Assembly: GCA_037444845.1 (NCBI GenBank)
Contig: JBBILQ010000004.1
Span: forward strand, 12,745 to 76,744
Source: Candidatus Aminicenantes bacterium
GTDB lineage: Bacteria; Acidobacteriota; Aminicenantia; Aminicenantales; UBA8522
Reading direction: 5' to 3'
Length of the DNA stretch: 64,000 nt
The position numbers and the translations under genes are program-made. The notes beneath the pieces were generated by a model. That model had not been told where the DNA came from. It searched no databases and was given only the letters and a program-made list of their open reading frames with translations. Shown in pieces: positions 19,391 through 36,963 of the stretch; the stretch's first letter is position 1; each line of letters opens with the position of its first letter.

Positions 19391-20847
19391 CTCAAAGAAT
19401 AACCATTGACCCGATCACTCGACTCGAAGGCCACGGCAAAATCGAGATTTTTCTCGACGACAAAGGAAATGTCGACCGGGCCATCCTCCAGATCCCGGAG
19501 CTCAGGGGTTTCGAACAGTTTGCCGTGGGCAGGCCGGTGGAGGAAATGCCGCGGATCACACCCCGCATCTGCGGTGTCTGTCCGACCGCTCACCACATGG
19601 CGTCGACCAAAACCGTCGACGCCGTCTTCCACGTCGAGCCCACTCCGACTGCCCGCAAAATCAGGGAACTCATCTACAACACGTTCATGATGGAAGACCA
19701 CACTCTCCACTTCTTCTTCCTGGGAGGGCCGGATTTCGTCGTCGGCCCCCAAGCGCCGGCGGCCGAGCGGAATATCTTGGGCGTCATCGGCAAGGTCGGC
19801 CTCGAGATTGGCGGCAAGGTCATCCGGGTGCGGCGTGAGTGCCGGGACATCATCAATTACCTGGCCGGAAAAGTCATCCACCCGGTCTGCGGCCTCCCGG
19901 GCGGCGTCTCCAAGGGGCTGGATGAAGAACACCGGGTTCAGTTCCTGGAGACGGCCAAATTCGCCGTCGAATTCGCCCAATTCGCCCTCCAGATATTTAA
20001 CGACGTCGTCCTGAAGAACAAAGAATACGTCGCCCTCGTCGTCGGCGACGCCTATAAAATCAAAACCTACTACATGGGACTTGTCGATGACAAAAACAAG
20101 GTCAATTTCTATGACGGAGCCGTGCGCGTCGTCTCTCCGGAAGGGAAAGAGTTCGCCAAGTTCAGGCCGAATGAATATTTAGAGCACATCGCCGAGCGCG
20201 TCGAGCCGTGGAGCTACATTAAGTTTCCTTTCTTAAAAAAAGTCGGCTGGAATGGGTTTACGGAAGGTTCGGGATCGGGCGTCTACAGGGTTGCCCCGCT
20301 GGCCCGGTTGAACGCTTCGGATGGCATGGCCACTTCTCTGGCCCAGAAAGAGCACGACCGGATGTACGAGACACTCGGAGGAAAACCTGCTCATAACACG
20401 TTGGCTTTCCACTGGGCCCGCCTGATTGAGGCCCTCCAGGCTGCCGAAGCCATGGTCATGTTGCTCGAGGACAGGTCCATCACCGATACAAATATCCGCA
20501 CGATCCCCACCCAGACGCCAACCGAAGGCGTGGGCATCGTAGAAGCACCCCGGGGAACGCTCATCCACCACTACAAGACAGATGAAAAGGGGATCGTTGA
20601 GGAGGCCAACTTGATCGTGGCCACGGTCAACAACTCGGCGGCTATCAACATGTCCATAGAGAAAGCGGCTAAAGCGTTCATAAAGGGTGGAAATGTCTCC
20701 GAAGGGCTGCTTAACCTGGCTGAGATGGCCTTCCGCCCCTACGACCCCTGCCATGCCTGCGGAACCCATGCCCTGCCAGGCGATATGCCGCTCGTCATCA
20801 ACATCTATGATCGAGACGGAGAGCTCGTCCGGCAGCTGAAGAGATGA
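19387..20847 (+). CDS. mvhA: NiFe hydrogenase large subunit, MvhA-type
   Basis: Start MTQRITIDPITRLEGHG overlaps the mvhG stop (ATGA). RICGVCP N-terminal Ni-binding motif; C-terminal DPCHACGTH followed by a short cleavable tail. Confidence 0.9.
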   Translation: MTQRITIDPITRLEGHGKIEIFLDDKGNVDRAILQIPELRGFEQFAVGRPVEEMPRITPRICGVCPTAHHMASTKTVDAVFHVEPTPTARKIRELIYNTFMMEDHTLHFFFLGGPDFVVGPQAPAAERNILGVIGKVGLEIGGKVIRVRRECRDIINYLAGKVIHPVCGLPGGVSKGLDEEHRVQFLETAKFAVEFAQFALQIFNDVVLKNKEYVALVVGDAYKIKTYYMGLVDDKNKVNFYDGAVRVVSPEGKEFAKFRPNEYLEHIAERVEPWSYIKFPFLKKVGWNGFTEGSGSGVYRVAPLARLNASDGMATSLAQKEHDRMYETLGGKPAHNTLAFHWARLIEALQAAEAMVMLLEDRSITDTNIRTIPTQTPTEGVGIVEAPRGTLIHHYKTDEKGIVEEANLIVATVNNSAAINMSIEKAAKAFIKGGNVSEGLLNLAEMAFRPYDPCHACGTHALPGDMPLVINIYDRDGELVRQLKR

Positions 20848-21251: not shown

Positions 21252-23234
21252 ATGCATCCTCTTCGCTTGTCCCTGCGAATAAAGCTCATCCTCAGTTTTT
21301 TGGTGGTCATCATCATAGGCGGGTTGATCTCCCTCACCTTCGGCCAGCGCTTGATCAAGAACGTTCTCATCTCTCAAGCCCAGGTCAAGGTCAATCACGA
21401 CCTGGCCTCTGCCTGGATCGTCTTCAACGAGAAGCTCAATGACATCGAAGACATCGTCAGCCTTACCGCTTCCCGGGAAAGCCTCCATGAGGCAATCCGG
21501 AATAACCGGAAAGACATTCTTCTCCGCTACCTGAACCGGGTCAGGAACCAGTACGGCCTGGACGTTCTGACCCTTACGGACAGACGAGGTCGGGTCATCA
21601 CGAGGACCAGGAACCCTGAGGTGGAAGGGGATGACCAGTCCGGGGATGAAATCGTCAGCTGGGCTCTTCAGCCCAATGTCCTCGCCTATCCCCAGATTAT
21701 CCCCCGGGAGGAGCTCCTTAAAGAGGGAAAAGACCTGGCCGAGAAAGCCTGCATGGAATTCATCCCTACCCCCAAGGCCGCTCCAAGGCCCGAGAATAAA
21801 GAGACAAGCGGCTTGATGCTTAAGGCAGCTGCCTCGGTCATCGATGAGAATGACGAGCCCCTCGGGGTTCTCTACGGCGGCATCCTCCTTAACCGCAACT
21901 ATGAGATCGTGGATAAGGTCAAAGAGACCGTCTTCAAAGGAGAAAAATACAAGGGGGTGGAGACGGGAACGGCGACGATCTTCCAGGGAGACCTGCGCAT
22001 CTCCACAAACGTCACCGATGCCCAGGGCCATCGGGCCATCGGCACGCGTATCTCCGAGGAGGTGAAGAAAGCCGTGCTCGATAAGGGCAAGTCCTGGAAC
22101 GACCGGGCGTTCGTCGTCAAGGACTGGTACATCACGGCTTACGAGCCGATCAAAAACATCAAGGACGAGATCATCGGCATCCTCTATGTGGGAACGCTGG
22201 AAAAGCCGTACATCGATATCGCCAATCGAGTCATGTTGACTTTCACTATCCTGGCCTCCCTCTGCGTCATCTTTCTCTTAGTCAGCCTCTATTTCTCAAC
22301 GACAAGAATCATCAAGCCTCTTCAGCGGATGGTCAACGCTACTCAGGAGATTGCCAAAGGAGACCTCGAGCATAAGGTGGAAATCAAGTCGACCGACGAG
22401 CTGGGCTATCTTGCCTCCTCCTTCAACCAGATGACCGAAAAACTCAAGGCCGCCAACGAGGAGCTTATCGAATGGGGCAGGACGCTTGAAAAAAAAGTCC
22501 AGGAGAGGACCGGAGAACTCCTGGAGATGCAGGCCTCCCTCGTTCAGTCAGAAAAACTGGCCTCGCTGGGCAAGCTGGCCGCAGGAATCGCCCACGAAAT
22601 CAACAACCCCCTGGGAGGAATTCTCATTTATAGCCATCTCCTCCTCGAAGAGACAAAGGGAAAAAGCGGCCAGTCTGAAACCCTGAAAAAAATCATCAAA
22701 GAGACATCCCGCTGCAAGAACATCGTCAAAGGGCTGTTGGAGTTTGCCCGGCCCAAAGAGCCGGAGATGGCGCCAACCGACCTCAATGAGGTAATAAACA
22801 AGACCCTGGCGATTTTTGAGCGCCAGGCGCTTTTTCAAAACATCAAGGTCGAGAAAGATTTTTCTGGCATTCCCAGGATCGTGGCTGACGGGTCCCAGCT
22901 CCAGCAGGTCTTCGCCAACATCATCATCAACGCCGCCGAAGCCATGGACGGAAATGGCCTGCTGACGATCAAGACATATCTGGACACAAAGACCAACGTT
23001 TTAAGAATCGAGTTCCGGGACACGGGACACGGAATCCGAGAAGAGGACCTGCCCCGTCTCTTCGAGCCTTTCTTCACCACTAAAGAAGTGGGCAAGGGGA
23101 CCGGCTTGGGCCTGGCCATCAGCTACAGCATCGTCCAAAAACACAACGGGTCTATCAAGGTAAAGAGCGAGGTCGGCCAGGGCTCAACCTTTACCGTCAT
23201 TCTCCCCCTGAACAAGGAAGCGCCATATGAATAA
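21252..23234 (+). CDS. Sensor histidine kinase with periplasmic sensor domain, HAMP, HisKA and HATPase_c
   Basis: N-terminal TM segment LILSFLVVIIIGGLISL and a second TM segment; HAMP region; SEKLASLGKLAAGIAHEINNPLGG; GTGLGLAISYSIVQKHNGSIKV. Confidence 0.85.
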   Translation: MHPLRLSLRIKLILSFLVVIIIGGLISLTFGQRLIKNVLISQAQVKVNHDLASAWIVFNEKLNDIEDIVSLTASRESLHEAIRNNRKDILLRYLNRVRNQYGLDVLTLTDRRGRVITRTRNPEVEGDDQSGDEIVSWALQPNVLAYPQIIPREELLKEGKDLAEKACMEFIPTPKAAPRPENKETSGLMLKAAASVIDENDEPLGVLYGGILLNRNYEIVDKVKETVFKGEKYKGVETGTATIFQGDLRISTNVTDAQGHRAIGTRISEEVKKAVLDKGKSWNDRAFVVKDWYITAYEPIKNIKDEIIGILYVGTLEKPYIDIANRVMLTFTILASLCVIFLLVSLYFSTTRIIKPLQRMVNATQEIAKGDLEHKVEIKSTDELGYLASSFNQMTEKLKAANEELIEWGRTLEKKVQERTGELLEMQASLVQSEKLASLGKLAAGIAHEINNPLGGILIYSHLLLEETKGKSGQSETLKKIIKETSRCKNIVKGLLEFARPKEPEMAPTDLNEVINKTLAIFERQALFQNIKVEKDFSGIPRIVADGSQLQQVFANIIINAAEAMDGNGLLTIKTYLDTKTNVLRIEFRDTGHGIREEDLPRLFEPFFTTKEVGKGTGLGLAISYSIVQKHNGSIKVKSEVGQGSTFTVILPLNKEAPYE

Positions 23235-24579
23235 ACCGGCCAACATCCTGATCATCGACGACGAAGAATCCATGCGCGATTCCATGAGCCAGGTTCTCCG
23301 CAAAGAAGGCTACACGGTCAAAGGGGCGGTTGAAGGAAAAGAAGGGTTGAACCTCTTCAACCGGGAGACATTCCACGTTGTCTTCCTCGACCTTAAGTTG
23401 CCGGGGGTCAAGGGTATGCAGGTGCTCAGCTGGATCAAAGATACCAGCCCGGAAACGCCGGTCATCATCGTCACCGGCTACGCATCGATCGAATCAGCTG
23501 TTGAAGCGATGAAGCGGGGCGCATTCGACTACATGGCCAAGCCCTTTACTCCCGAAGAGCTGCGGGTCGTCACCAAGAGGGCCTTGGACGGACGGAAGCT
23601 TCTGTTTGAAAACATCTATCTTCGCGGCGAGCTCGAGGCCAAAACTGAATTCGAGATGGTCATCGGGAAGAGCAAAGCCATGCGCGATGTTCTCGACATC
23701 GTCAGGCGGGTCAGCCCCACCGAGAGCACGGTCCTCATCACCGGAGAGAGCGGCACGGGCAAGGAGCTCATCGCCCGGGAAATTCATCTTCACAGCCTGA
23801 GACGACAGGCGCCTTTCGTGGTCGTCGACTGCGGAGCCCTGGTCGAGACGCTCTTCGAGTCTGAGCTTTTCGGACACGTCAAAGGGTCGTTCACCGGAGC
23901 CCACGAGACCAAGCACGGGCGGTTCGAAGTGGCTGACGGAGGCACAATTTTCTTCGACGAGATCAGCAACATCGGGCTCAACATCCAGGTCAAGCTGCTC
24001 CGTGTTATCCAGGAGAGGGAGATTACCCGGATCGGGTCGAGCAAGCCGATCAAAGTTGACGTCCGGATCCTGGCCGCAACCAATGAAGACCTGGCCGAGG
24101 CCGTGAGAAAGGGAAAATTCAGGGAGGACCTCTTCTACAGGCTGAGCGTCGTCCCGATCCAACTGCCCGCCCTGCGCGAAAGGAAAGAAGACATACCTCT
24201 GCTGGTCGAGCATTTCTTGCGCAAGTACAACAAAAGAGCCAAGAAAAATATTGAAGGCGTTTCCCCTCGCGCCATCAAAGCGCTCGCCGAATACGACTGG
24301 CCCGGAAACATCCGCGAGCTGGAGAACACGATAGAAAGAGCCGTCGTCCTGTCCAAGACGAACGGCATCGACATGGAGGACCTGATGTATCACGGGATCA
24401 GCGCTTCAACCGGCCTGGCGGCATCTGCCGGCGGAAAATACAGAACCCTGGAAGAAATAGAGAAAGAGCACATCAAAGCCGTCCTCCAGGCTCAGTTCGG
24501 GAACAAGAGCCGGGCCGCTGAGGTGCTGGGGATTGACCGAAAAACTCTCTGGGCCAAAGTCAAGAAGTACAAAATCTAG
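23227..24579 (+). CDS. Sigma-54-dependent response regulator (NtrC family) with C-terminal HTH
   Basis: Receiver ILIIDDEESMRD...DLKLPG; GESGTGKE; ESELFGHVKGSFTGA; GKFREDLFYRL; C-terminal Fis-like HTH RAAEVLGIDRKTLWAKVKKY. Confidence 0.9.
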   Translation: MNKPANILIIDDEESMRDSMSQVLRKEGYTVKGAVEGKEGLNLFNRETFHVVFLDLKLPGVKGMQVLSWIKDTSPETPVIIVTGYASIESAVEAMKRGAFDYMAKPFTPEELRVVTKRALDGRKLLFENIYLRGELEAKTEFEMVIGKSKAMRDVLDIVRRVSPTESTVLITGESGTGKELIAREIHLHSLRRQAPFVVVDCGALVETLFESELFGHVKGSFTGAHETKHGRFEVADGGTIFFDEISNIGLNIQVKLLRVIQEREITRIGSSKPIKVDVRILAATNEDLAEAVRKGKFREDLFYRLSVVPIQLPALRERKEDIPLLVEHFLRKYNKRAKKNIEGVSPRAIKALAEYDWPGNIRELENTIERAVVLSKTNGIDMEDLMYHGISASTGLAASAGGKYRTLEEIEKEHIKAVLQAQFGNKSRAAEVLGIDRKTLWAKVKKYKI

Positions 24580-24693: not shown

Positions 24694-24824
24694 AGTGAGG
24701 AAAAATGCCACTCTAAGGAGAACGAGTTTTTTAAACCAACTTCTGGGAAGGTCGGTTGCCTGATAATTTATTTTGAATCAATGTGTTAGGAAGTAATTAG
24801 CCGGCGCCAGAGCGCCTCCAATTA

Positions 24825-24839
24825 GGCACAGAATTTGCA
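24825..24839 (+). promoter_or_regulatory. Sigma-54 (-24/-12) promoter GGCAC-N5-TTGCA upstream of the sulfhydrogenase-like operon
   Basis: taGGCACagaatTTGCAt matches the TGGCAC-N5-TTGCW consensus with correct GG/GC spacing; located just downstream of the sigma-54 activator gene. Confidence 0.7.
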
Positions 24840-24971
24840 TAACCTCTTCTTCTACGGTTGCGGAGTCTGTTTTTTCATGATACAAGAACAGTGTCATCAA
24901 AATCGGGCTCTTATGTTGTTTGCCCTAACGGAGGGGCAAAAAATGTTCGAGCCGACATAAGGACGGACAAC

Positions 24972-26030
24972 ATGAGAATATCAAAACTCCAAAAGAACGG
25001 GCTTTTCCCCTTCCTTGAAGCTATTTCCAGGGAGGCAGAGCTGTGGGCGCCCGTCGCCAAGGGGGATAAGTTCGCCTTTGACCGCGTCGCCGACTTTTCG
25101 CGGATCGCCATGAATTCAACCCGCACGATCATCCCGGCTAAAAAAATCATGGTCCCTGCCAGCTTCAACATGTTTCACTTCACAGAAAAGGGGTATAGGG
25201 AGGACCTCTCTCATGTCACCAACAGAATCCTGTTCGGCGTTCATGCCTGCGACATTCATGGCCTTTTGACCTTGGACAAGATCTTTACGCAGGCCTATCC
25301 CGACCCTTATTATCTCGAACCCAGAAAAAGGACGATGATTCTCGGGCTGTCCTGCTGGCCTGACGAGCACTGCTTCTGCAAATCAACCCATACTCACATT
25401 GTCGAGGAAGGTTATGACCTTTTCTTCACGGACTTAAAGTCATATTTCCTCGTCTGGATCGGGTCCAGCCGGGGCGACGACCTCATTCGCCTCGCCCCCG
25501 ACCTTTTCGACGAGAACCTGACCGAGAAGGACGTCAAGACGTATATCAAATGGCAGGACGAAAGAGATAAGGCCTTCAAGACAGAAATCCAGTTCATCCG
25601 GATGCCTGACCTGATGGAGCTCAACTACCGGGCGCCTTTCTGGGAGGAGGCCGGAGATGCCTGTCTGGCCTGCGGCTCCTGCACCATGGTTTGCCCGACG
25701 TGCAATTGTTACAACGTCATGGATAAGCAATTTCTTGGGGGAAAACCGGGCCAGCGGGTACGGCACTGGGATTCCTGCACTCTCCCCGAGTATTCTGAGG
25801 TGGCGGGCGGAGAAAACTTCAGGGAGAAAAAGTCCCAGCGTCTCAAGCTCTGGTACACCCATAAGCTCCAGGCTTATGTCTCCAAGTACGGCAAGCCGAG
25901 CTGCGTCGGCTGCGGCCGTTGCCTGGTAACGTGCCCGGTCCAGATAAACGTCAAGACGGTGGCCGCGGCCCTGGAAGGGCAGGAGCCGGAGGCATTCTGG
26001 AAAAACCTGGCCAGGGAGGCAACAAGATGA
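24972..26030 (+). CDS. hydB: Sulfhydrogenase beta-like 4Fe-4S subunit (HydB/AsrA family)
   Basis: Start moved to MRISKLQ (RBS AAGGA; the annotated upstream ATG would overlap the promoter). CLACGSCTMVCPTCNC and CVGCGRCLVTCP motifs. Confidence 0.7.
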   Translation: MRISKLQKNGLFPFLEAISREAELWAPVAKGDKFAFDRVADFSRIAMNSTRTIIPAKKIMVPASFNMFHFTEKGYREDLSHVTNRILFGVHACDIHGLLTLDKIFTQAYPDPYYLEPRKRTMILGLSCWPDEHCFCKSTHTHIVEEGYDLFFTDLKSYFLVWIGSSRGDDLIRLAPDLFDENLTEKDVKTYIKWQDERDKAFKTEIQFIRMPDLMELNYRAPFWEEAGDACLACGSCTMVCPTCNCYNVMDKQFLGGKPGQRVRHWDSCTLPEYSEVAGGENFREKKSQRLKLWYTHKLQAYVSKYGKPSCVGCGRCLVTCPVQINVKTVAAALEGQEPEAFWKNLAREATR

Positions 26031-26887
26031 ACACTCAAGATAAGTGTCCTGCGGAAACTAATCCCTTTATGCCCGAGCCGGCCCGAATTGTCCGCGCCTA
26101 TCATCTGACCGAGGACGTCAAATTCTTCCAGGCCCGATTCGTTGACATGGAAAAGGCTCTGGCCTTCAGCTATAAGCCGGGGCAGTTTGCCATGGTCTCG
26201 ATCTTAGGGGCCGGAGAAGCTCCTTTCTCGATCTCCTCGACGCCTTCGCGGCCAGGCCTTCTTGAGTTCTGCATCCGGAGAGCCGGGACGGTCACCAACG
26301 CCCTCTTCCGGCTGAAAGAAAACTCGCTCATCGGCCTCCGCGGCCCTTACGGCAACGGTTTTCCCGTCGAGGCCATGACTGGCAAGGACATTCTTATCGT
26401 CGTCGGCGGGCTGGGCGCGGCCCCTCTCCGCTCTGTCCTTCTTTACAGCCTGGACAACCGCGACCAGCTCGGCCGGGTGACTGTTCTCTATGGCGCCAAG
26501 AGGCCGGCGGAAATGATTTTCAGGGAGGAATATTTATCCCTGAAACAGAGGAACGACCTCGAATGTCATTTAGCTGTAGACGCGGACGACACCGGGAAAT
26601 GGACAGAAAACGTCGGCGTCGTGACCACGCTCTTCCCCAGTCTAAAAAAAATAGACGCGCCCAACACCTATGCTCTCGTCTGCGGCCCGCCCGTGATGTA
26701 TAAATTCGTCATCAAGGAACTGATCAAGCTCGCCATCCCCAAGAACCAGATCCTGATGACGCTCGAACGGCGGATGAAATGCGGGGTGGGCAAGTGCGGC
26801 CACTGCGCCATCGATTACATCTACACCTGCCTCGACGGCCCTGTTTTTACCTACTGGGATGTCATCCACATGAGGGAGCTCATCTAA
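26027..26887 (+). CDS. hydG: Sulfhydrogenase gamma-like FAD/NAD(P)-binding 2Fe-2S subunit (HydG/AsrB/PyrK-like)
   Basis: Start MNTQDK overlaps the hydB stop (ATGA). FAD and NAD folds; C-terminal CGVGKCGHC 2Fe-2S motif. Confidence 0.8.
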   Translation: MNTQDKCPAETNPFMPEPARIVRAYHLTEDVKFFQARFVDMEKALAFSYKPGQFAMVSILGAGEAPFSISSTPSRPGLLEFCIRRAGTVTNALFRLKENSLIGLRGPYGNGFPVEAMTGKDILIVVGGLGAAPLRSVLLYSLDNRDQLGRVTVLYGAKRPAEMIFREEYLSLKQRNDLECHLAVDADDTGKWTENVGVVTTLFPSLKKIDAPNTYALVCGPPVMYKFVIKELIKLAIPKNQILMTLERRMKCGVGKCGHCAIDYIYTCLDGPVFTYWDVIHMRELI

Positions 26888-27107: not shown

Positions 27108-27890
27108 ATGGAAAAAGAAAAGTTGAAAATCGGCATCTACGAGCTCACCGGCTGCGCCGGCGACGCTCTCCTCATTGTCGACTGCGAAGAGGAGCTTGTG
27201 AACATCTTCAAGGCCGCCGACATCGAGTCCTTCCTCATGGCCAAGAGCGATAACCGCAACGGCGAGCTCGACGTGGCTCTGGTGGAGGGCTCGGTCAGCA
27301 CGGAAAACGAAAAGGAAGAGCTCCTGGATATCAGAAAACGGTCCAAGGTTGTCGTGGCCATAGGCAACTGCGCCTGCGTCGGCGGCATCCAGGCAGCCTT
27401 CCTGGACAAGAAAGACTGGGAGAAGAACTTCAAGAAAGTTTACGGTGCCACCGCCTTCACCCACACCAAACCCGCCCAGAGCAAGCCTATCGACGCGTAC
27501 ATCCGCGTCGATCATTATCTTCCTGGCTGTCCCATCGGGAAAGAGCAGTTTCTTTCGACCTTCGCCCGGATGGTGGAAGGGAACCCGCCGGAGCTTTACC
27601 GCTTCCCCGTTTGCGTCGAATGCAAATGGCATGAAAACGACTGTCTTCTCAACAAAGACATCCCCTGTCTGGGTCCTTTGACATTGGGCGGCTGCGGGTC
27701 CGTTTGCCCGAATCATGCCATCCCCTGCTTTGGCTGCTGGGGCCCGACAGAGGAGGCCAATATGACTTCCGAATACCGCCTTCTCTTAGAAAAAGGCTTT
27801 GACCTCGAAATGATCAAAAAGAGAATGGCCACCTACTCCGGAACGAGGATTGCCGAGTTCTTCGCGCAATTCAGAAAGGAGAAAAGATGA
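27108..27890 (+). CDS. hydD: NiFe hydrogenase small subunit, group 3b (HydD-like)
   Basis: Start MEKEKLKIGIYELTGCAGD with RBS AAGGAGG; GNCACVGG and other cluster Cys motifs. Confidence 0.85.
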   Translation: MEKEKLKIGIYELTGCAGDALLIVDCEEELVNIFKAADIESFLMAKSDNRNGELDVALVEGSVSTENEKEELLDIRKRSKVVVAIGNCACVGGIQAAFLDKKDWEKNFKKVYGATAFTHTKPAQSKPIDAYIRVDHYLPGCPIGKEQFLSTFARMVEGNPPELYRFPVCVECKWHENDCLLNKDIPCLGPLTLGGCGSVCPNHAIPCFGCWGPTEEANMTSEYRLLLEKGFDLEMIKKRMATYSGTRIAEFFAQFRKEKR

Positions 27891-29623
27891 AGACGATCAG
27901 CATCGACCACCTCGCCCGCGTTGAAGGCAATGGCGGCATTTCCGCCACCATCGATGGCCGCGTCGTCACCGAAGTCAAGTTCACGGTCAACGAAGGCCCG
28001 AGACTCATCGAGCGCCTGACGGTCGGCAAGACGCCCGAAGAGGACGTCAGCATCGCTCCCCGGATATGCGCCATCTGCACTCTTTCTCATAAAAACGCCG
28101 TCCTCCGTGCCATGGAGAACGCCCTGGGTGTCAAGGTTCCGGCGAAAGTGACTCTCCTCCGGGAGCTCATGCACATGGGTGAGTTCATCGAAAGCCATTC
28201 CCTGCACGTGTTTTATCTTGCTCTCCCCGATTATGTAGGTTTTCCCAACGCCATTGCCATGGCCTCAAAATTTCCGCTTGAGGTCAAGATCGCCTTAGAG
28301 ATGAAGCAGTTCGGCAACCACATCATGAAAGTCCTGAGCGGCCGGTATATCCACGGCGAAAACCCGGTCATCGGCGGGTTCGGGAAGTACCCCGCCAGGG
28401 ATGAGCTCATCTGGATCAAAAACCGGGCGTTCCAGTTCATGCCCTTTGTTATCAGGACGGTGGACCTGTTCTGCGGCCTTGGCTATCCGGCCATTCCCGA
28501 GGAGGATACCGTCTACGCCTGTTGCGAGCCGGAAGACGGAAAATACGGTCTCTGGGGGGACGAGATCATCCTGTCCACGGGAGAAAAAATCAACAGGGAT
28601 GACTACAGGAGTTTGACAAACGAATTTTTCGTCCCGCATTCCTTTTGCAAGCGCAGCCGGTACAAAGGAAACACGTATTCTGTGGGCGCCCTCGCCCGAG
28701 TCAACGTCCTGGGCGAGAGGCTCGAGGGGGAAACAGGCAAGATGTTCAAGAAATATTTCAACGCCCGCTGGAAAAGGAACCCCCTCTTCCACAACGCTGC
28801 CCAGGCTCTGGAAATTCTTTACGCTTTTGAAAAAATCCCGGAGCTGGTGGATGAAATTCTCAAACACCCAGAGAATCCAGCTTTGGTTCCGTACAAATCC
28901 AAGAGCGGCAAAGGGACAGGCCTGGTGGAAGCTCCCCGGGGCCTCCTCGTCCATCATTATGAAATAGCAGACGGCCTTGTCGCCGACGTCGACATCATCA
29001 CTCCGACCGCTCAGAACGCCGAAGAGATCGAACGATATTGCTACATTGCAGCCCAGAAGCTCTTAGATGAGGGGAAAGAGAGCGAGATCAGAGACAGGAT
29101 GGAGCTCGTCGTCCGGGCGTTTGACCCATGCATCAGCTGTTCGGTCCATATGGCCGAGGTCAAAAAGGCCCCGGCCGAGAACTGGAAAATCAAGCTGGCC
29201 GGGCTCCTTAAAGCCAACCCTGTTTTTATCGGCGTCGGGAAAGAAGGCCGGTCGGACGACCGGGCCGGCCTTGAACTGGCCTTAGAGATGAGGAAAGCCG
29301 GCGTCAAAGACGTCTACCTGGAACAGGAACTCGAAGAGGGCCACATCCTGGAAAAGGCCTCCCGGCGGCCTCTCATTTTCCTGGACATCGCGAACATGGG
29401 AGAACAGGCGGGTAAAATTGCCGTGCTGCCTCTCCAGCACGTCTTCTGGAACTCCGTGCTAAGCCACAGACTCTTGCCCGCCCTCTCGAACAAACTGACC
29501 CACGACGAGATCAAACACGCCTACATTCTCGGCATCCAGCCCAAATCTGTGGAAGAAGGAGACGACTTGTCTCGGCCGGTCCGGCGGGCCCTAAAAAAAA
29601 TCCTGAGTGAAACGATAGATTAA
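27887..29623 (+). CDS. hydA: NiFe hydrogenase large subunit (HydA-like) fused in frame to a C-terminal maturation endopeptidase (HycI/HybD-like) domain
   Basis: RICAICT N-terminal motif; DPCISCSVH C-terminal Ni-binding motif at about aa 410. After a 24-aa linker comes VFIGVGKEGRSDDRAGLELALEM (compare the protease motif LGxGNxxxxDDGxG), then LIFLDIANMGEQAGK and THDEIKHAYILGIQPK. Confidence 0.8.
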   Translation: MKTISIDHLARVEGNGGISATIDGRVVTEVKFTVNEGPRLIERLTVGKTPEEDVSIAPRICAICTLSHKNAVLRAMENALGVKVPAKVTLLRELMHMGEFIESHSLHVFYLALPDYVGFPNAIAMASKFPLEVKIALEMKQFGNHIMKVLSGRYIHGENPVIGGFGKYPARDELIWIKNRAFQFMPFVIRTVDLFCGLGYPAIPEEDTVYACCEPEDGKYGLWGDEIILSTGEKINRDDYRSLTNEFFVPHSFCKRSRYKGNTYSVGALARVNVLGERLEGETGKMFKKYFNARWKRNPLFHNAAQALEILYAFEKIPELVDEILKHPENPALVPYKSKSGKGTGLVEAPRGLLVHHYEIADGLVADVDIITPTAQNAEEIERYCYIAAQKLLDEGKESEIRDRMELVVRAFDPCISCSVHMAEVKKAPAENWKIKLAGLLKANPVFIGVGKEGRSDDRAGLELALEMRKAGVKDVYLEQELEEGHILEKASRRPLIFLDIANMGEQAGKIAVLPLQHVFWNSVLSHRLLPALSNKLTHDEIKHAYILGIQPKSVEEGDDLSRPVRRALKKILSETID

Positions 29624-29739: not shown

Positions 29740-29848
29740 GCCGCTTGGATATCGCAGGGCCCAAAAGAGAGAAGAGATGGCTGTTAGCTCTATGTTATTT
29801 AATATCAATAACATAAATATTCCACTCGGGCCACCTCCCCCGCACGTT

Positions 29849-29864
29849 TGGCACACAAATTGCT
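29849..29864 (+). promoter_or_regulatory. Sigma-54 promoter TGGCAC-N5-TTGCT upstream of the receiver gene
   Basis: tTGGCACacaaaTTGCTt is a perfect consensus match; the RBS GAGGA and ATG 29891 follow. Confidence 0.75.
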
Positions 29865-29890
29865 TTACTTCCCTCCCTGAGGAATATGCG

Positions 29891-30262
29891 ATGAGCAGCG
29901 GAGAAAAGAGAATCCTGATCGTCGACCCCGATCCTGTTCAGAGGCGGGACTTGGCCCAGTTTCTTAAGAATGAAAACTACGATCCCGAAACAGCCAGAAA
30001 CCTCTCCGAGGCCATCAAGAAAGTATCCGGGAGAGGTTTTAGCTGTCTGGTGATGGATACTCATCTTCCCGAGATGAAAGGCTATGAAGCTGTTTCCATT
30101 CTCAAGAACCTCGACCCGGGGCTCAAGATCATCATGACGACGAAGAAAAACACCAAGCGGCTTGAGGCCAAAGTCCGGGAGCAGGACATCTTCTTCTATT
30201 TTATCAAGTCCTTCGGCAAAGATGAGCTGAAGCTTGCCATAAGAAACGCTTTTAACAAGTAA
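29891..30262 (+). CDS. Single-domain response regulator (CheY-like receiver)
   Basis: Start chosen at MSSGEKRILIVDPD; phospho-acceptor Asp context CLVMDTHLPEMKG; conserved K in IIMTTKK. Confidence 0.7.
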   Translation: MSSGEKRILIVDPDPVQRRDLAQFLKNENYDPETARNLSEAIKKVSGRGFSCLVMDTHLPEMKGYEAVSILKNLDPGLKIIMTTKKNTKRLEAKVREQDIFFYFIKSFGKDELKLAIRNAFNK

Positions 30263-30275
30263 AGGAGGAAAGGCA

Positions 30276-30683
30276 ATGAACAAAAGCGCCCAGAAAATCT
30301 TGGTCATCGACGACGACCCCGATTTCTTGGCTGCGGTGACCCCAATCTTGAAATCAGCCCTTTACGAAGTTGCGACGGCCACAAACCCAAAGGAGGCCAA
30401 GGAAAAGATTTTTTCCGAAAAGCCCAACCTCATCCTGCTCGACATCATGATGGACAGCCTTTTTGACGGCTTTTCCCTCTGTCACGCCATTAAGACTTCG
30501 AAGGAATTTAGAGACTATAAAGATACACCCATCATTTTCATTTCAGCCGTAAAGGAGATCGCCGGCACCAGGTTCCAGTTCAAGGGCGATGAAGAGGGCA
30601 TGGCCGGTCCCGATGACTATATCGACAAGCCGGTCAAGCCCGACGACCTGCTGGCCCGGATCGCCAAACTCCTCAAAAAATAG
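30276..30683 (+). CDS. Single-domain response regulator (receiver) with a divergent C-terminal half
   Basis: KILVIDDDPDFL...LILLDIMMDS...IIFISA; strong RBS AAGGAGG. Confidence 0.75.
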   Translation: MNKSAQKILVIDDDPDFLAAVTPILKSALYEVATATNPKEAKEKIFSEKPNLILLDIMMDSLFDGFSLCHAIKTSKEFRDYKDTPIIFISAVKEIAGTRFQFKGDEEGMAGPDDYIDKPVKPDDLLARIAKLLKK

Positions 30684-30744
30684 AATTCCTCCGCCTCCTC
30701 CATTCCCTTCCCGCTGCCCCAGGAAAAGAAAGTAACTTCTATAA

Positions 30745-30866
30745 TGGGCGCAGGGGGCTGCTCTAAAGCCCCCGTAGCGGAGGGGGGACCCGTCGGCTTC
30801 TCCGACGGGGGGAACCGACGGGACTGGTTCCCCGGGGCGCGGGGGCCAAGAGCAGCCTCCTGCGCC
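30745..30866 (+). ncRNA. Repeat B copy 1: about 122-nt structured element (outer 19-bp stem enclosing three hairpins), candidate small RNA preceded by TATAAT
   Basis: Second copy at 52253..52376 shows compensatory changes in the stems. G-U pairs are possible only on the plus strand. TATAAT lies at 30739..30744, immediately upstream. Confidence 0.5.
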
Positions 30867-30961
30867 CTATCCAATGATATAAGTAGAAATGCTTAGCGGA
30901 GTAAAATCCGGGCTGAAATGAATCGCGATTTGCGCTAAAATAGAGCTCCAGGAGAAAAGCC

Positions 30962-32074
30962 GTGGCCGAAAAAAACCCGATTGTTCTTGTTATTGACGAC
31001 GAAGAAGCCATGCGGGATTCGTGCTCCCTCATCCTGGCCAAAGGCGGGTTCACCGCCGTGACAGCCGAAGACGGCCAGGTTGGGCTGGAAAAAATAAGGG
31101 ATCTCAAACCCGACGTCGCTCTCATCGACCTGAAGATGCCGGGCATCAGCGGGTTCGACGTCCTGGAAAAAACGAAAGAGATTGACCCCCAGCTCATTCC
31201 CATCGTCATCACGGGATATGCGACCGTGGATTCTGCCGTCGAAGCGATGAAAAAAGGCGCTTATGACTTCCTGCCCAAGCCCTTCACTCCCGAGGAGCTC
31301 CGGATTATCATCAGCCGGGCGCTGGAAAGGCGCCGGCTGGCTATGGAGGCCGAGACACTGCGGCGCGAAAAGAAGCTCATGGAGGATAATTTCATCACCA
31401 TGGTCACCCACCAGCTCCGCAGCCCGCTGGTGGCCATCCAGCAGTATTTCGAGGTCATCCTGGCTGGACTGGCCGGCCAGGTCGATAAAACCCAGCAGGA
31501 GATGATCCTGAGAGCCCGGGAGCGGCTGGACAGCCTGCTCCGGCTGATCAACGACTGGCTGGACCTGGCCAGAATCGACCGGGGCCAGATCGTGGGCAAG
31601 CTCAAACCCGTGGCTCTCGACAACCTGCTCAAGAAGCAGGTTGAATTTTTAGAGTCGCTGGCGAAGGAGTATGAGGTGAGCCTGGAACTCGAGCCGGCCA
31701 AAGGGCCAGCCGCTGTGCTGGGCGATGAGCAGATGCTGGACCAGGTCTTCTCCAATATCATCACCAATGCCATCAAGTACAACAAGCCGAAAGGCTCAGT
31801 GACCATCTCGATGGGTCATGAGGACAGCTTCGTCGTCGTCAAGGTAAAGGACACGGGGATCGGGATTGCCAGGGAACACCTTCCGTTCATCTTCGACCAA
31901 TTCTACCGTGTCAGCCGCAGGGAGGACCAGAAAATCAAGGGGACTGGCCTGGGGCTTTCAATCGCCAAAAAAATCGTCGAAGCCCACAACGGCTCGATAG
32001 ACGCGGAGAGCGAGCCGGGTCAAGGCTCCACGTTCAGCGTCAGGCTTCCCCGGCCGGAAGATGAAACAAAATGA
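30962..32074 (+). CDS. Hybrid response regulator-histidine kinase (N-terminal receiver, HisKA, HATPase_c)
   Basis: IVLVIDDEEAMRD...IDLKMPGISG; HQLRSPLVAIQQY; DTGIGIAREHLPFIFDQFYRV...GLGLSIAKKIVEAHNGSI. Confidence 0.85.
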   Translation: MAEKNPIVLVIDDEEAMRDSCSLILAKGGFTAVTAEDGQVGLEKIRDLKPDVALIDLKMPGISGFDVLEKTKEIDPQLIPIVITGYATVDSAVEAMKKGAYDFLPKPFTPEELRIIISRALERRRLAMEAETLRREKKLMEDNFITMVTHQLRSPLVAIQQYFEVILAGLAGQVDKTQQEMILRARERLDSLLRLINDWLDLARIDRGQIVGKLKPVALDNLLKKQVEFLESLAKEYEVSLELEPAKGPAAVLGDEQMLDQVFSNIITNAIKYNKPKGSVTISMGHEDSFVVVKVKDTGIGIAREHLPFIFDQFYRVSRREDQKIKGTGLGLSIAKKIVEAHNGSIDAESEPGQGSTFSVRLPRPEDETK

Positions 32075-32550
32075 AGACTCTTGTTTTAGGCCTGGGAAAC
32101 GAGCTCTACGGAGACGACGGAATCGGCGTCCAGGTCATTCGCCATCTCAGGGAGGAAATGACAAAAATGCCGACCGGGGATTTCCAGGATGTCGACCTGG
32201 AAGAATGCTCCCTGTCCGGCCTCGCCCTTTTAGATGTTATCGTCGGCTACGACCGGCTCATCCTCATCGACACCATCAAGCGGGAGGCCCCCCAAACGGG
32301 AAGAATCCAGGTTTTGGGAGAGGCCGATATCCGGGCCGTTCCCGGCCCCTCTCCCCATTACGCCTCGGTGCCGCAGGCGATCGAAATCGGGCGAAGCCTC
32401 GGCCTCCACATGCCCTCCCGCATCCAGGTCGTGGCCGTCGAGGCAAAGAACCTTCATTCTTTAGGAGAAAAGCTATCGGAGGAAATGGAAAAAAACATGC
32501 CGGCCATTGCCGAGAAGGTCAAAAAAATCTTGAGAAAAACAGAGGATTAG
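32071..32550 (+). CDS. hycI: Hydrogenase maturation endopeptidase (HycI/HoxW/HybD family)
   Basis: LVLGLGNELYGDDGIGV signature; start overlaps the upstream stop (ATGA). Confidence 0.85.
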   Translation: MKTLVLGLGNELYGDDGIGVQVIRHLREEMTKMPTGDFQDVDLEECSLSGLALLDVIVGYDRLILIDTIKREAPQTGRIQVLGEADIRAVPGPSPHYASVPQAIEIGRSLGLHMPSRIQVVAVEAKNLHSLGEKLSEEMEKNMPAIAEKVKKILRKTED

Positions 32551-32553
32551 GAA

Positions 32554-33225
32554 GTGGACAGAAAAGAGGTTCTTGTCCGCGAGGAGATCTTAGCCTCAAA
32601 CAAGAAAATAGCCGCTGAAATCCGCGCCCGGCTGGAAAAAGAAGGCATCCTGACCGTCAATCTCCTCAGCTCGCCGGGAGCAGGCAAGACCTCGCTCTTG
32701 GAGAGAATCGCTGAAGCTTTCAAACTGAATCACCGCATGGCTGTCATCGAGGGCGATATCGAAACTGACCTGGACGCCGAGCGGATCCGGAAGAAGGGTG
32801 TGACGGCCTGGCAGATCACCACCGGCGGCGCCTGCCATCTCGAGGCCAGGATGGTCGCCAGGCTCATTCCCGAAATTCCCTCCGAGACCAAGTTTTTGTT
32901 CATCGAAAACGTCGGCAACCTTGTCTGTCCGGCCAGCTACGACCTGGGAGAAAGCCTGCGCTGCGTCCTCCTCTCACTGCCCGAGGGCGACGACAAACCA
33001 AAGAAATATCCCAAGGCTTTTGCCACGGCCGACTGCCTCATTTTCACCAAGGCCGACCTGATGCCCGTCGTTCCCTTCGACCTGAGGCGGGCGGAAAAGG
33101 AAGCCCTGGAGATCAACCCGAAGCTCCGCGTTTTCCTGACCTCTGCCCTCAGGGGCGCGGGCATTGCCGAGCTTGTCCGCTTCTTTATTGAGCGCCGCGT
33201 CAACATGATCCAGCGTCATGCATGA
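32554..33225 (+). CDS. hypB: Hydrogenase nickel-incorporation GTPase HypB
   Basis: P-loop SSPGAGKTSLL; ENVGNLVCP; SYD...; probable GTG start. Confidence 0.85.
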   Translation: MDRKEVLVREEILASNKKIAAEIRARLEKEGILTVNLLSSPGAGKTSLLERIAEAFKLNHRMAVIEGDIETDLDAERIRKKGVTAWQITTGGACHLEARMVARLIPEIPSETKFLFIENVGNLVCPASYDLGESLRCVLLSLPEGDDKPKKYPKAFATADCLIFTKADLMPVVPFDLRRAEKEALEINPKLRVFLTSALRGAGIAELVRFFIERRVNMIQRHA

Positions 33226-33562
33226 ACTTTCCATCATCGCCAGCCTGTTTGAAATCCTGGAAGAAAAAGCCCAGGAGCAGAAAGCGAACAAAATCGTCCT
33301 CGTCAAGTTAAAGGTCGGAAAACTGGCGGGCGCCGTCCCCGAGTTCCTCGAAACCGCCTTCAATATTTACAAGGACGGAACAATCGCCAGAGAAGCGATC
33401 CTGGAAATCGAGGAAGTCCCCCTCAGGATTCGCTGCCGCACGTGTCAGGCCATTGCCGAAAGGGATGACTTTGTCTTCGTCTGCCCGGCCTGCGGTTCGA
33501 CCGTCCTCGAAACTCTCGAAGGGACCGAGCTTCTCCTCGAAAAAATCGCCCTGGAAATCTAA
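33218..33562 (+). CDS. hypA: Hydrogenase nickel-insertion protein HypA
   Basis: MHELSIIASL N-terminus; zinc-finger CRTCQ...CPACGS. Confidence 0.85.
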   Translation: MHELSIIASLFEILEEKAQEQKANKIVLVKLKVGKLAGAVPEFLETAFNIYKDGTIAREAILEIEEVPLRIRCRTCQAIAERDDFVFVCPACGSTVLETLEGTELLLEKIALEI

Positions 33563-36500
33563 CCCCCCAGGAGGCCTTCGATCTCCGCAAAAATCTGCTC
33601 ATCACGGAAATGATTCTGCTGGGAAGCGGCCGCGGGACAGGCGGCGACACACGTCCCGCAGCCCTTGCAGAGCGCCTCGTTCACCTTGGAGATGCCTTCG
33701 TCCTCAGAGAACTTGATGGCCGTGTAGGGACAGAGGTCGTTGCAGAGGCGGCAGCCGGAGCAGAGCTCCGGGTCGATATAAGCCTGGATGGGCTCGATTT
33801 CAATCTCTCCCTTAGAAATATAGGCCAGAATGCGCGCGGCCGCCGAGCTCGCCTGGGCCACGCTGTCTGGAATGTCCTTCGGCCCTTGACAGCATCCCGC
33901 GATGTATATTCCATCTGTGGCCGTGGCCGTTGGGTCGAGCTTGGGATGCTTCTCCAGGAAGAAACCATCAGGGCTTCGGCTGATGGAAAAGAGCCGCTGG
34001 ATGTCGCCCGCGTCGGGTTGAGGCTCGATGGCGTTGCAGAGCACGACCATGTCAACGGGGATTTCCCGGTACTTTTTGATCAGCGTATCTTCGCAGCGGA
34101 TGAGGAGAGTCCCTTCTTCTTTTTTGGACCAGCCAGATTGAACCACCTCGGCCACTTTGCCCCGAATGACATTCACCCCCTCTTCTAAGATCCGGGAATA
34201 GAACTCTTCATACCCCTTGCCAAAGGCTCTCATATCAATGTAGAACTCGTAGACTTCAGCGTCTGTCCTGTCTTTGATGAGATGGGCAAACTTGAGCGCA
34301 TACATGCAACAGACACGGGAGCAGTAGGGGTGATACTTTTCATCCCGGGATCCGACGCAATGGATGATCCCGATGGCCCTCGGCTCCTGGCCATTTTTCA
34401 AGACAATCCTTCCCTGGGTTGAGCCTGTGGAACTCACGATCCTCTCAAATTCAAGGCTTGTGTAGACGTTATCGAATTGGCCGTAGCCGTAAAGGCTGAG
34501 GGCCTTGGAATTTAACGTTGCGTAGCCTGTGGCCAGGAGGATCTGCCCGACCTTAATCTCCTTGATCTCATCCTTCATGCGATGGTCAATGGCTTTCGGC
34601 TCGCAAACGCGCACGCACTCTTGGCATTCAACACAGATGCCGCAATTCAGGCAGCGTTCCGCTTCTTTCATCGCCTCTTCCTCGGTTAAGCCCAACTCCA
34701 CTTCTTCAAAGGTTTTGAGCCTTTTCTCCAGGCTAATTTCACTCATCTTCGTCCGGGGCACCCTGGGAGTTTCCTTGAAGGCTGGAGCATACCGATGAGG
34801 ACGGAAGCTCTCATCCCTTTTCGCCAGCTTCTTCGCCCGGGGAGTTGTGAAATCCGCGAGAGGCTCGTTGTTGAGGTATTTATCGATGGCTTCAGCGGCG
34901 CGCTTCCCGTCGCTCATGGCAGCGATCACGGTGGCCGGCCCGAGGACAACATCTCCTCCGGCAAAAACTCCTCTGATGTTGGTCTCCAGCGTCTCCGGGT
35001 TGACCTCGAGGGTGCTCCATTTGGTCACGTTGAGGGGAAATTTACCGGTTAAAAAGTCAACAACAGGCTCCTGGCTGACGGCAATGAGCAATGTGTCAAA
35101 GGCGAGATCATGCTGGCTTCCCTCAACTGGCACCGGCCGGCGCCGGCCGCTCGAATCAGGCTCTCCCAGTTCCATGCGGATGCATCGCACGCCGCAAATT
35201 TTTCCTTCTTTTCCTAAAACTTCGACCGGAGCCACGAGATATTGAATGGCGACTCCTTCTTCTTCAGCCGCAAGAATTTCCGCTTCCTCGGCCGGCATCT
35301 CCTTCCTGGTTCGCCGATACAAGACGGTCACCTCCCTGGCTCCGCAGCGGAGAGCGGTCCTGGCGGCGTCTACGGCCGTATTTCCCCCTCCCACAACAGC
35401 CACTCTCTTTCCCACAGGCTGAGGCCTTCCGAGGTTGATATCCCGCAAGAAATCGACGCCGTGCAAGACGCCTTCCAGGTTTTCTCCCGGAATGGCCATT
35501 TTTAGGCTTTTGTGGGCTCCTGTGGCAATATAAATCGCCTTGAATCCCTGGCTAAAAAGATCGTCGATGACGAAGTCTTTTCCCAGAGCCATGTTTGTCT
35601 TTATCGTCACCCCCATCCGTTTGATAAAGTCAATCTCCATATTGAGGATTTCCCGGGGCAAACGGTATTCAGGAATGCCCAAAATCAGCATGCCTCCCGC
35701 CACCTCGTGCTTTTCAAAGATGACGGGTGAATAGCCTCTCAAGGCGAGCTCATGGCCGCAAGCAAGGCCGGACGGCCCTGATCCGATAATGGCAATCTTC
35801 TCTTTCTTTTTCTTCTCCGCCTTGGGAACTTCGACAAGCGCCTTATTTTTGAGCTCCCAGTCCATGACAAACCGCTTGATGTTTTTTATGGCTAAAGGCT
35901 CATCGGCAAACCGGCGGCTGCATTCCGACTCGCAGGGATGGTAGCAGACGCGGCCGCAGACGAAGGGCAAAGGATTGTCCCGGCGAATGAGGCGGGCCGC
36001 TTCGGCAAACCTCCCTTTGGCAACAAGGGCGATGTATCCGGCGGCCTCCTGGCCGATGGGACAGGTCTCGCGGCAGGGGGGGCGTTCTTCCTTATCGATA
36101 AGGTAGGTGTTGGGAACAGCCTGGGGAAAGGTCCTGTAGATGGCGCTCCTTGCAACCTGATTCTCTTCAAATGAGTTGGGAACAAGGATTGGACAGGCTT
36201 TAACACATTCCCCGCAGGCGGTGCATTTTTCGCTGACATAGCGGGCCTTTTTCTTCACCTTGACGGTGAAATCGCCGATGAAGCCCTGGACATCCTCGAT
36301 TTCGCTCAGGCTGAGGAGCTCGATGTCCTCGTGCTGGGCGACGGAGACCATCTTTGGAGTGAGGATGCAGGCGGCGCAATCCAGGGTGGGGAAGGTTTTA
36401 TCGAACTTGGCCATCTTGCCGCCGATCGTCGAATCCCGCTCGACAAGATACACTTTGTTTCCGGAATCGGCGATCTCCAGAGCAGCCTGAATCCCTGCGA

Positions 36501-36963
36501 TTCCGCCTCCAACGATGAGCGTAGCAGGGTTGACTTTTACCACGACGGGGTCGAGGGGAGCCTGGCGGACAACTCTCATCACCGCTGCCTTGACCAAGGC
36601 TTTGGCCTTCTCGGTAGCCTCCTCCTTTTTTTGATGAACCCAGGAGCACTGTTCCCGGATATTGGACATCTGAAAAAGGAATCGGTTCAATTTGGCCGTC
36701 TCACAGGCCTTGCGAAACGTCTTTTCGTGCATCAAGGGCGAGCAGGAAGCGACCACAACCCGGTCGAGCCCCATCTCTTTTATATCCTTGATGATGAGCT
36801 CCTGGCCGGGATCAGAGCACATGAACTTGTATTCCCGTGCCACTGCCACACAGTCGAGCCTGGAGGCAAAACCCGTCACTTCGTAGACATCAACTGTCTG
36901 AGCGATATTGAACCCGCAATGGCAAATATAGACTCCGACCTTCACATTTTTATCCCTGCTCAT
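33559..36963 (-). CDS. hdrL: HdrL-like protein: HdrA with an inserted NfnB/GltD-like NAD(P)H-binding domain (1134 aa)
   Basis: HdrA N-terminus VYICHCGFNIA, CSWVH, IVGGGIAGIQAALEIA; inserted GltD-like IAIIGSGPSGLACGHELA...VVGGGNTAVDAAR; C-terminal HdrA half with ferredoxin motifs CSGCRLCNDLCP and CKGCGTCVAACP. Confidence 0.85.
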   Translation of the reverse strand: MSRDKNVKVGVYICHCGFNIAQTVDVYEVTGFASRLDCVAVAREYKFMCSDPGQELIIKDIKEMGLDRVVVASCSPLMHEKTFRKACETAKLNRFLFQMSNIREQCSWVHQKKEEATEKAKALVKAAVMRVVRQAPLDPVVVKVNPATLIVGGGIAGIQAALEIADSGNKVYLVERDSTIGGKMAKFDKTFPTLDCAACILTPKMVSVAQHEDIELLSLSEIEDVQGFIGDFTVKVKKKARYVSEKCTACGECVKACPILVPNSFEENQVARSAIYRTFPQAVPNTYLIDKEERPPCRETCPIGQEAAGYIALVAKGRFAEAARLIRRDNPLPFVCGRVCYHPCESECSRRFADEPLAIKNIKRFVMDWELKNKALVEVPKAEKKKKEKIAIIGSGPSGLACGHELALRGYSPVIFEKHEVAGGMLILGIPEYRLPREILNMEIDFIKRMGVTIKTNMALGKDFVIDDLFSQGFKAIYIATGAHKSLKMAIPGENLEGVLHGVDFLRDINLGRPQPVGKRVAVVGGGNTAVDAARTALRCGAREVTVLYRRTRKEMPAEEAEILAAEEEGVAIQYLVAPVEVLGKEGKICGVRCIRMELGEPDSSGRRRPVPVEGSQHDLAFDTLLIAVSQEPVVDFLTGKFPLNVTKWSTLEVNPETLETNIRGVFAGGDVVLGPATVIAAMSDGKRAAEAIDKYLNNEPLADFTTPRAKKLAKRDESFRPHRYAPAFKETPRVPRTKMSEISLEKRLKTFEEVELGLTEEEAMKEAERCLNCGICVECQECVRVCEPKAIDHRMKDEIKEIKVGQILLATGYATLNSKALSLYGYGQFDNVYTSLEFERIVSSTGSTQGRIVLKNGQEPRAIGIIHCVGSRDEKYHPYCSRVCCMYALKFAHLIKDRTDAEVYEFYIDMRAFGKGYEEFYSRILEEGVNVIRGKVAEVVQSGWSKKEEGTLLIRCEDTLIKKYREIPVDMVVLCNAIEPQPDAGDIQRLFSISRSPDGFFLEKHPKLDPTATATDGIYIAGCCQGPKDIPDSVAQASSAAARILAYISKGEIEIEPIQAYIDPELCSGCRLCNDLCPYTAIKFSEDEGISKVNEALCKGCGTCVAACPAAASQQNHFRDEQIFAEIEGLLGG

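Follow-up and report, generated by a model that had tools for sequence, protein, structure and literature searches.

How does a [NiFe]-hydrogenase large subunit mature when its endopeptidase is encoded in the same polypeptide? This question is raised by the gene at 27887-29623 (+ strand) of a 64,000-nucleotide stretch of DNA, the window, from a Candidatus Aminicenantes bacterium (GCA_037444845.1, contig JBBILQ010000004.1, positions 12,745 to 76,744). An earlier note, made from the letters of this DNA alone, read the gene as a group 3b large subunit fused in cis to a maturation protease domain of the HycI/HybD type. The fusion is real and conserved, and it is the norm in Aminicenantes genomes. 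The fused domain is probably a functional endopeptidase that removes itself from its large subunit.

A [NiFe] large subunit becomes committed to assembly at the checkpoint of C-terminal processing. The responsible endopeptidase acts only after nickel insertion, with the metal as its recognition element, and cuts after the His or Arg of DPCxxCxxH/R; once the tail is gone, the active site closes (PMC6769069, PMC2670836, PMC12134894). Specifically, tail removal lets Cys-4 close the site, and the endopeptidase is not classifiable as a metallo- or a serine protease (PMC6769069). Questions about this step concern the recognition of the nickel-loaded precursor, the catalytic mechanism, and the specificity of one protease for one hydrogenase.

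A single reading frame across both halves

The fused gene is a single stop-free open reading frame (ORF) of 578 amino acids. The codon of H421, the His of the nickel motif, is cat (29147-29149) and is followed by 157 more in-frame codons, in agreement with the claim that the frame runs about 150 amino acids past this motif. The gene is composed of the following parts:

27887-29149, + strand: large-subunit module, residues 1-421 (NCBIfam and Foldseek)
29147-29152, + strand: predicted scissile bond H421/M422, codons cat atg, placed from the known cleavage after the His or Arg of DPCxxCxxH/R
29150-29221, + strand: tail and tether, residues 422-445 (alignments and AlphaFold secondary structure)
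29222-29623, + strand: predicted HycI/HybD-type endopeptidase domain, residues 446-578 plus the stop codon (profiles, fold and triad)

The extension matches the HycI/HybD family

Searched alone against the maturation protease families with hidden Markov models (HMMs), as the earlier note had proposed, the extension matches Pfam HycI PF01750 (23.9 bits, E 4e-5, cut-off 23). Against NCBIfam TIGR00072, "hydrogenase maturation protease", it scores 45.7 bits (E 6e-12), slightly less than the cut-off of 47.45. As a single query against the PDB, the extension finds Thermococcus kodakarensis HycI weakly (E 0.03). A profile of 20 fused C-terminal regions finds Escherichia coli HycI (2e85/2i8l) at E 2e-13 and T. 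kodakarensis HycI (5zby) at E 1e-12, together with the HybD structures of T. kodakarensis and E. coli. The AlphaFold model of the extension alone has a predicted local distance difference test (pLDDT) score of 84 and a predicted template modelling (pTM) score of 0.83. Its 11 best PDB matches are all hydrogenase maturation proteases (probability 1.00, TM 0.55-0.69), with 2i8l, 2e85 and 5zby at the top, and the fused domain is 16-25% identical to the solved proteases. With these matches, the fold and the intact metal ligands, the proposed fusion to a HycI/HybD-type domain is borne out.

In the profile alignment, D458 (the second Asp of SDDRAG, 29258-29260), D500 (FLDIANMG, 29384-29386) and H527 (LSHRLLP, 29465-29467) are aligned with the HycI motifs GDDGAG, VDATD and TTHNM. 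The HycI ligands at these positions are numbered D16, D62 and H90. In HybD, the metal ligands are Glu16, Asp62 and His93 (PMC2670836). By alignment, D458, D500 and H527 are the metal-ligand positions of the HycI/HybD family, and all three are invariant in every fused homologue examined (57 sequences, 44-100% identity). Three hallmark motifs had been named in the earlier note. Two of them, GVGKEGRSDDRAGLE and LDIANMG..AGK, correctly name the first and second motifs of the family. THDEIKH (538-544) was rejected as the His box; it is variable in the family, and the conserved His is H527 in LSHRLLP.

HycI of E. coli and T. kodakarensis (MEROPS A31, PF01750) shares with the fused domain its fold, the three ligand positions, and the GxG..DDxxG, xxDAxxxG and xxH motifs. 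The presumed substrate is also alike: the bond after the His of DPCxxCxxH. Free-standing HycI is a separate polypeptide, whereas the fused domain forms the C-terminus of its own presumed substrate, after an extra conserved Trp-containing helix. The two also differ in the canonical GxGN motif, which reads GVGK in the window protein, with Lys in place of Asn. This fourth position is K, R, N, Q, S, C, V or M in the Aminicenantes clade and N in a second clade of Eisenbacteria and Latescibacteria, described below.

The hydrogenase half is a group 3b large subunit

Residues 1-421 carry four Ni/Fe-ligand cysteines, C61 and C64 in RICAIC (residues 59-64, 28061-28078) and C415 and C418 in DPCISCSVH (residues 413-421, 29123-29149). 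All four, along with H421, are invariant in alignments of the fused homologues. The best NCBIfam matches are ShyA (E 7e-107) and HydA (E 3e-105), both under their equivalog cut-offs. Since its NCBIfam scores are so far under (358 against a cut-off of 700), the protein belongs to a distinct bacterial subclade. In Foldseek, the large-subunit part of the full-length AlphaFold model (pLDDT 87, pTM 0.85) best matches the alpha subunit of Pyrococcus furiosus soluble hydrogenase I (SHI; 9nf0_H, TMt 0.93, 39% identity), and T. kodakarensis HyhL is also a top match. Because of the ligand motifs, the ShyA/HydA matches, and the superposition of the model on SHI alpha and HyhL, assignment to the group 3b [NiFe]-hydrogenases of the HyhL type is sound on sequence and model; NAD(P)-linked H2 activity is predicted only.

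The gene order, which the assignment of the earlier note to group 3b also fits, is that of a four-gene hyhBGSL operon with the fused gene last. Its other members are:

24972-26030, + strand: hyhB-like beta subunit (4Fe-4S), Pfam Fer4_22 E 8e-33; likely start ATG at 24972, mechanical ORF start TTG at 24858
26027-26887, + strand: hyhG-like gamma subunit (FAD/NAD(P)-binding, 2Fe-2S), Pfam NAD_binding_1, DHODB_Fe-S_bind and FAD_binding_6; likely ATG at 26027 overlaps the hyhB stop
27108-27890, + strand: hyhS-like small (delta) subunit, Pfam Oxidored_q6 E 1e-23

The ATG of the fused gene overlaps the stop codon of the small-subunit gene (ATGA, 27887-27890), with AAGGAG a few bases 5', and the fused gene is translationally coupled to the small-subunit gene. 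The same hyhBGSL order is found in the related loci L085 and L086. P. furiosus SHI alpha (HydA) and T. kodakarensis HyhL are alike in the operon and in the Cys motifs. These characterized subunits stop a few residues after the His and have separately encoded proteases, whereas the window protein goes on for 157 amino acids.

The junction keeps an ordinary tail

After H421, the residues MAEVKKAPAE (from 422) correspond to the short C-terminal extension of unfused relatives. Unfused Eisenbacteria sisters end in H-LVEVRKKE, and fused proteins run on as H-MAEVKKAP.. or H-LVEIKKTE... Because the unfused sisters end with the same residues, the first ~8-10 residues after H421 are best read as the ordinary short extension of the subclade. 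The AlphaFold model predicts a beta-strand at 423-427 and a helix at 432-441, which contains the invariant W433 and leads into strand 1 of the protease. The tether is 24 residues long in the window protein and 24 to about 65 residues in the second clade. The junction HMAEVKKAP..W is itself conserved.

The C-terminal extension of immature T. kodakarensis HyhL contains a strand that pairs with N-terminal ones and pushes Cys-4 out of place (PMC6769069). The window protein is alike in having a short tail with a predicted beta-strand. Confidence in the full-length model is lowest at residues 416-420 and 1-15; in this, and in the strand predicted at 423-427, the model matches the published description of immature HyhL.

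Among the fused homologues, H421 is invariant and residue 422 is Met or Leu. An internal start at M422, which would yield a separate protease, was not accepted as a conserved feature, because the second clade has Leu at this position. Because there is no stop before residue 422, the large subunit must be read through.

The fusion is conserved and under purifying selection

A species-level scan, with one genome per species, found a relative in 391 genomes; the locus counts given here and below refer to the best 80 of these. Most of the 80 are labelled Aminicenantes or Acidobacteriota, and some have placeholder labels. Where their contigs are long enough, the alignments span residues 1 to about 575, and about 76 of the 80 loci have a single stop-free frame across both halves. 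The exceptions are frame breaks in L047, L060 and L065 and a contig edge in L084. The three interrupted genes may be pseudogenes, or their frame breaks may be assembly errors.

The 120 best database clusters are all 553-608 amino acids long, with 68-100% identity and 99-100% query coverage, and many carry precomputed PF00374 and PF01750 annotation. A second deep clade with the same architecture, at 44-49% identity, is composed of Eisenbacteria, Latescibacteria and their relatives. Across the 57 fused sequences, H421, W433, G449, G451, D457, D458, G461, D500, G509, H527, Q551 and P552 are effectively invariant. A look for the same fusion in related genomes had been proposed in the earlier note, and it is there. 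The earlier note also called the arrangement unusual; it is so relative to every characterized system, but not within the Aminicenantes genomes.

Selection was estimated by the Nei-Gojobori method on the three closest gene pairs, whose synonymous distances (dS) of 0.42-0.63 are unsaturated. In these pairs, the protease domain has a ratio of nonsynonymous to synonymous change (dN/dS) of 0.24-0.26, at a dS of 0.42-0.48, and the hydrogenase part one of 0.06-0.07. Given these ratios, the protease domain is under purifying selection that is about four times more relaxed than that on the catalytic core.

Unfused sisters and a possible loss of the domain

Four Eisenbacteria proteins (P0290-P0293) are 427-440 amino acids long and have no protease domain. 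Compared with the fused Eisenbacteria protein P0144, their hydrogenase parts are 67-70% identical, the first 8 tail residues are shared, and the genomic neighbourhood is similar, but no protease gene follows hyhL. In a rough neighbour-joining tree of the hydrogenase parts, which has no support values, these unfused sisters nest within the fused clade. This tentatively suggests one old fusion, with a later clean loss of the domain in one lineage.

A close pair of loci has the two forms side by side. L001 (1796-3118; Eisenbacteria, GCA_016928935.1) is unfused and L085 (10001-11800) is fused; their hyhL genes are close and their neighbourhoods similar. In L001, hyhL stops 8-19 residues after the His, and an unrelated PNP_UDP_1 gene lies 33 nt further. 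From this arrangement, the domain appears to have been cleanly lost or gained.

Among the nearest free-standing relatives of the fused domain, P0136 adjoins hypA, a context that is uninformative on the origin of the fusion. Two other proteins have an N-terminal HycI-like domain. P0217 (490 amino acids) continues into a long unrelated C-terminal region that is exported- or lipoprotein-like, and P0196 (286 amino acids) into a short unrelated one with a hydrophobic segment.

Proposed maturation of the fused precursor

Maturation proteases bind their large subunit in stable complexes that depend on the cofactor (PMC5299533), and because of this, a fusion of the two is mechanistically natural. The fused domain probably acts as a tethered, dedicated endopeptidase, one per substrate, that cuts itself free. 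The precursor would be a HyhL-type large subunit covalently tethered to its own maturation endopeptidase. The Hyp machinery would first insert Fe(CN)2CO, followed by Ni. The fused domain would recognize the Ni-loaded site via the D458/D500/H527 triad and hydrolyze the H421/M422 bond. One product would be the mature 421-amino acid large subunit of about 47 kDa, able to close its active site and to join the small subunit. The other would be a free 157-amino acid fragment of about 17.5 kDa, composed of the tail and the protease. The protease would be supplied 1:1 with its substrate at a very high local concentration. It would also be insulated from the second hydrogenase (Mvh) of the island, which a stand-alone maturation protease encoded at 32071-32550 probably serves.

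Cleavage in cis is sterically plausible, since the 24-residue tether, 10 residues of which are helical, would let the N-terminus of the domain sit by its own active site. The data fit cleavage between two precursors just as well. A stricter form of the proposal is an obligate intramolecular, single-turnover reaction, in which the domain is docked from synthesis, fires once when Ni arrives, and leaves; this is possible, but somewhat less likely than its contrary. By analogy, and with no homology implied, the arrangement resembles the protease domains of viral polyproteins, where the protease lies within the precursor that it cleaves, is present 1:1, and releases itself. Unlike in viral polyproteins, cleavage here is expected to be gated by insertion of a metal cofactor into the substrate half.

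Weighing the alternatives

Several observations count against self-processing. The single-sequence HMM scores are borderline, with TIGR00072 at 45.7 against 47.45, and PF01750 on the whole 578-amino acid protein reaches 20.2 bits, under its cut-off of 23. The Asn of GxGN, which is not a metal ligand, varies among the Aminicenantes fusions. The stand-alone protease lies 2.4 kb downstream of the fused gene, and a similarly placed one occurs in about 17 of the 80 related loci, so a protease that could act in trans is available in many fusion genomes. The last two of these points would suit a domain that is a non-catalytic Ni sensor or chaperone, an enlarged extension that holds the large subunit open while the 32071-32550 protease cuts in trans. 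The roughly fourfold faster evolution of the domain relative to the hydrogenase core would suit it too. Moreover, the triad of these proteases is thought to bind Ni for substrate recognition (PMC2670836), and for this reason conservation of the triad alone is no proof of catalysis. Against such a sensor stand the hyhBGS-L~protease operons of the Eisenbacteria and Latescibacteria, whose 10-kb flanks on both sides lack any further protease gene and any hyp gene, and the whole HycI fold, which is kept with three invariant ligands over a deep divergence. The stand-alone enzyme, in turn, is a distant paralogue that is probably needed by a second hydrogenase with a normal tail. A sensor or chaperone role is thus unlikely, though it is the foremost of the rival explanations.

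Permanent retention of the domain, with the mature enzyme keeping it as a fifth domain such as a cap or an interaction surface, is considerably less probable. The one point in its favour, the compact full-length model (pTM 0.85), is indirect. Exactly as processed relatives do, the fused proteins retain the tail, the invariant H421 and the cleavage motif, and in [NiFe] maturation it is removal of the extension that lets Cys-4 close the site (PMC6769069). A lineage nested in the fused clade has deleted the domain and keeps 8 tail residues, and the model is least confident exactly at 416-420. An artefact, in which a sequencing or assembly error erased a stop codon between hyhL and a downstream protease gene, has next to no probability left. 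The frame breaks in L047, L060 and L065 show that assembly errors do occur in such metagenome-assembled genomes (MAGs). A lost stop codon or frameshift is nevertheless refuted by the comparative data: the frame is continuous in about 76 of the 80 species-level genomes, in the 120 best clusters and, overall, in more than 150 protein clusters from independent metagenomes, with a conserved junction. Self-processing by a functional fused endopeptidase therefore remains the favoured, probable explanation.

The surrounding hydrogenase island

The region from 15.9 to 38.5 kb of the window is a hydrogenase/heterodisulfide-reductase island. Apart from the hyhBGSL operon, it is composed of the following features:

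15899-17647, - strand: hdrC/B-like genes
17983-20847, + strand: Mvh-type [NiFe] hydrogenase, with mvhD at 17983-18429, mvhG at about 18410-19390 and mvhA at 19387-20847
21252-24579: Cache-domain sensor kinase and sigma-54-type response regulator (regulator gene 23227-24579)
24824-24839, + strand: candidate sigma-54 promoter, AGGCACAGAATTTGCA, 1 mismatch, between the response regulator gene and hyhB
29777-32074: two receiver proteins and a hybrid kinase (hybrid histidine kinase 30962-32074)
29849-29864, + strand: candidate sigma-54 promoter, TGGCACACAAATTGCT, 0 mismatches, ahead of the receiver/kinase/protease/hypBA string
32071-32550, + strand: stand-alone hydrogenase maturation protease, TIGR00072 101 bits, E 6e-29
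32554-33225, + strand: hypB, cobW/HypB Pfam match
33218-33562, + strand: hypA, HypA Pfam match
33559-36963, - strand: HdrA-like protein of 1134 amino acids with an inserted GltD/DPD-type Fer4_20 and Pyr_redox_2 module
36960-37829 and 37840-38505, - strand: HdrB (CCG) and HdrC-like genes, after the HdrA fusion

The stand-alone protease matches HybD/HupD/FrhD-type models, and the fused domain is nearest to HycI. The two share 29% identity over 79 amino acids, and by sequence the stand-alone protease is a distant paralogue of the fused domain. MvhA ends in DPCHACGTH-ALPGDMPLVINIYDRDGELVRQLKR, an ordinary cleavable tail of 25 amino acids. Because MvhA keeps this normal tail and the two proteases are only distantly related, it is plausible that the stand-alone protease serves the Mvh enzyme. 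Its start (32071-32074) overlaps the stop of the hybrid kinase gene, and its stop lies 3 nt before hypB; this overlap and short gap suggest that the regulator, the protease, hypB and hypA are co-transcribed. Both hyp genes lie 3 kb downstream of the fused gene.

Within the window, only the two candidate promoters match the sigma-54 -24/-12 consensus with 0 or 1 mismatch. Both are intergenic, and both lie next to the sigma-54-type activator gene at 23227-24579. They are consensus matches only, and the total number of sigma-54 matches in the window is not above chance.

The HdrA-GltD-like protein, encoded beside the hyp genes, is an HdrA fusion of an unusual kind. Outside the island lie two very large multi-domain oxidoreductases:

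8084-11347 and 11376-14441, - strand: two very large multi-domain oxidoreductases

One contains NuoE/NuoF-like and GltD-like modules (1021 amino acids), and the other 2Fe-2S, Pyr_redox and 2x4Fe-4S modules (1087 amino acids). The two may serve the Hdr/Mvh system as a partner linked to NAD(P)H and ferredoxin.

Novelty and significance

No paper describing a fusion of a large subunit to its endopeptidase was found by a full-text literature search, whose coverage left out most subscription journals. Matches to Thermoproteus tenax and to a Cell 2024 paper concern other fusions. The words "fusion" and "fused" are both absent from a recent review of [NiFe] cofactor assembly. The fusion is apparently undescribed, though both halves are known families, the maturation step is textbook knowledge, and the architecture is already in the databases. 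Annotation pipelines name the protein inconsistently, as "hydrogenase maturation protease", "nickel-dependent hydrogenase large subunit", "sulfhydrogenase subunit alpha" or "hypothetical protein". Many of the host MAGs carry placeholder taxa, such as "uncultured Eubacteriales bacterium", and have Aminicenantes as their closest relatives. The enzyme is common in sediment and subsurface Aminicenantes, and surveys of these bacteria will miscount hydrogenases and proteases as a result of the mixed naming.

The PDB searches made in this analysis brought up no solved structure in which an A31 endopeptidase is complexed with a [NiFe] large subunit. A natural chain with enzyme and substrate at 1:1 is a handle for trapping this complex by crystallography or cryo-electron microscopy, and for distinguishing cleavage in cis from cleavage in trans. 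If the intramolecular reading is true, a triad mutant or the Ni-free form would be a stoichiometric, covalently trapped A31 enzyme-substrate complex, and its structures could address both the catalytic mechanism and the basis of Ni recognition. For the organisms that encode it, the fusion would be one evolutionary solution to protease specificity where several hydrogenases coexist.

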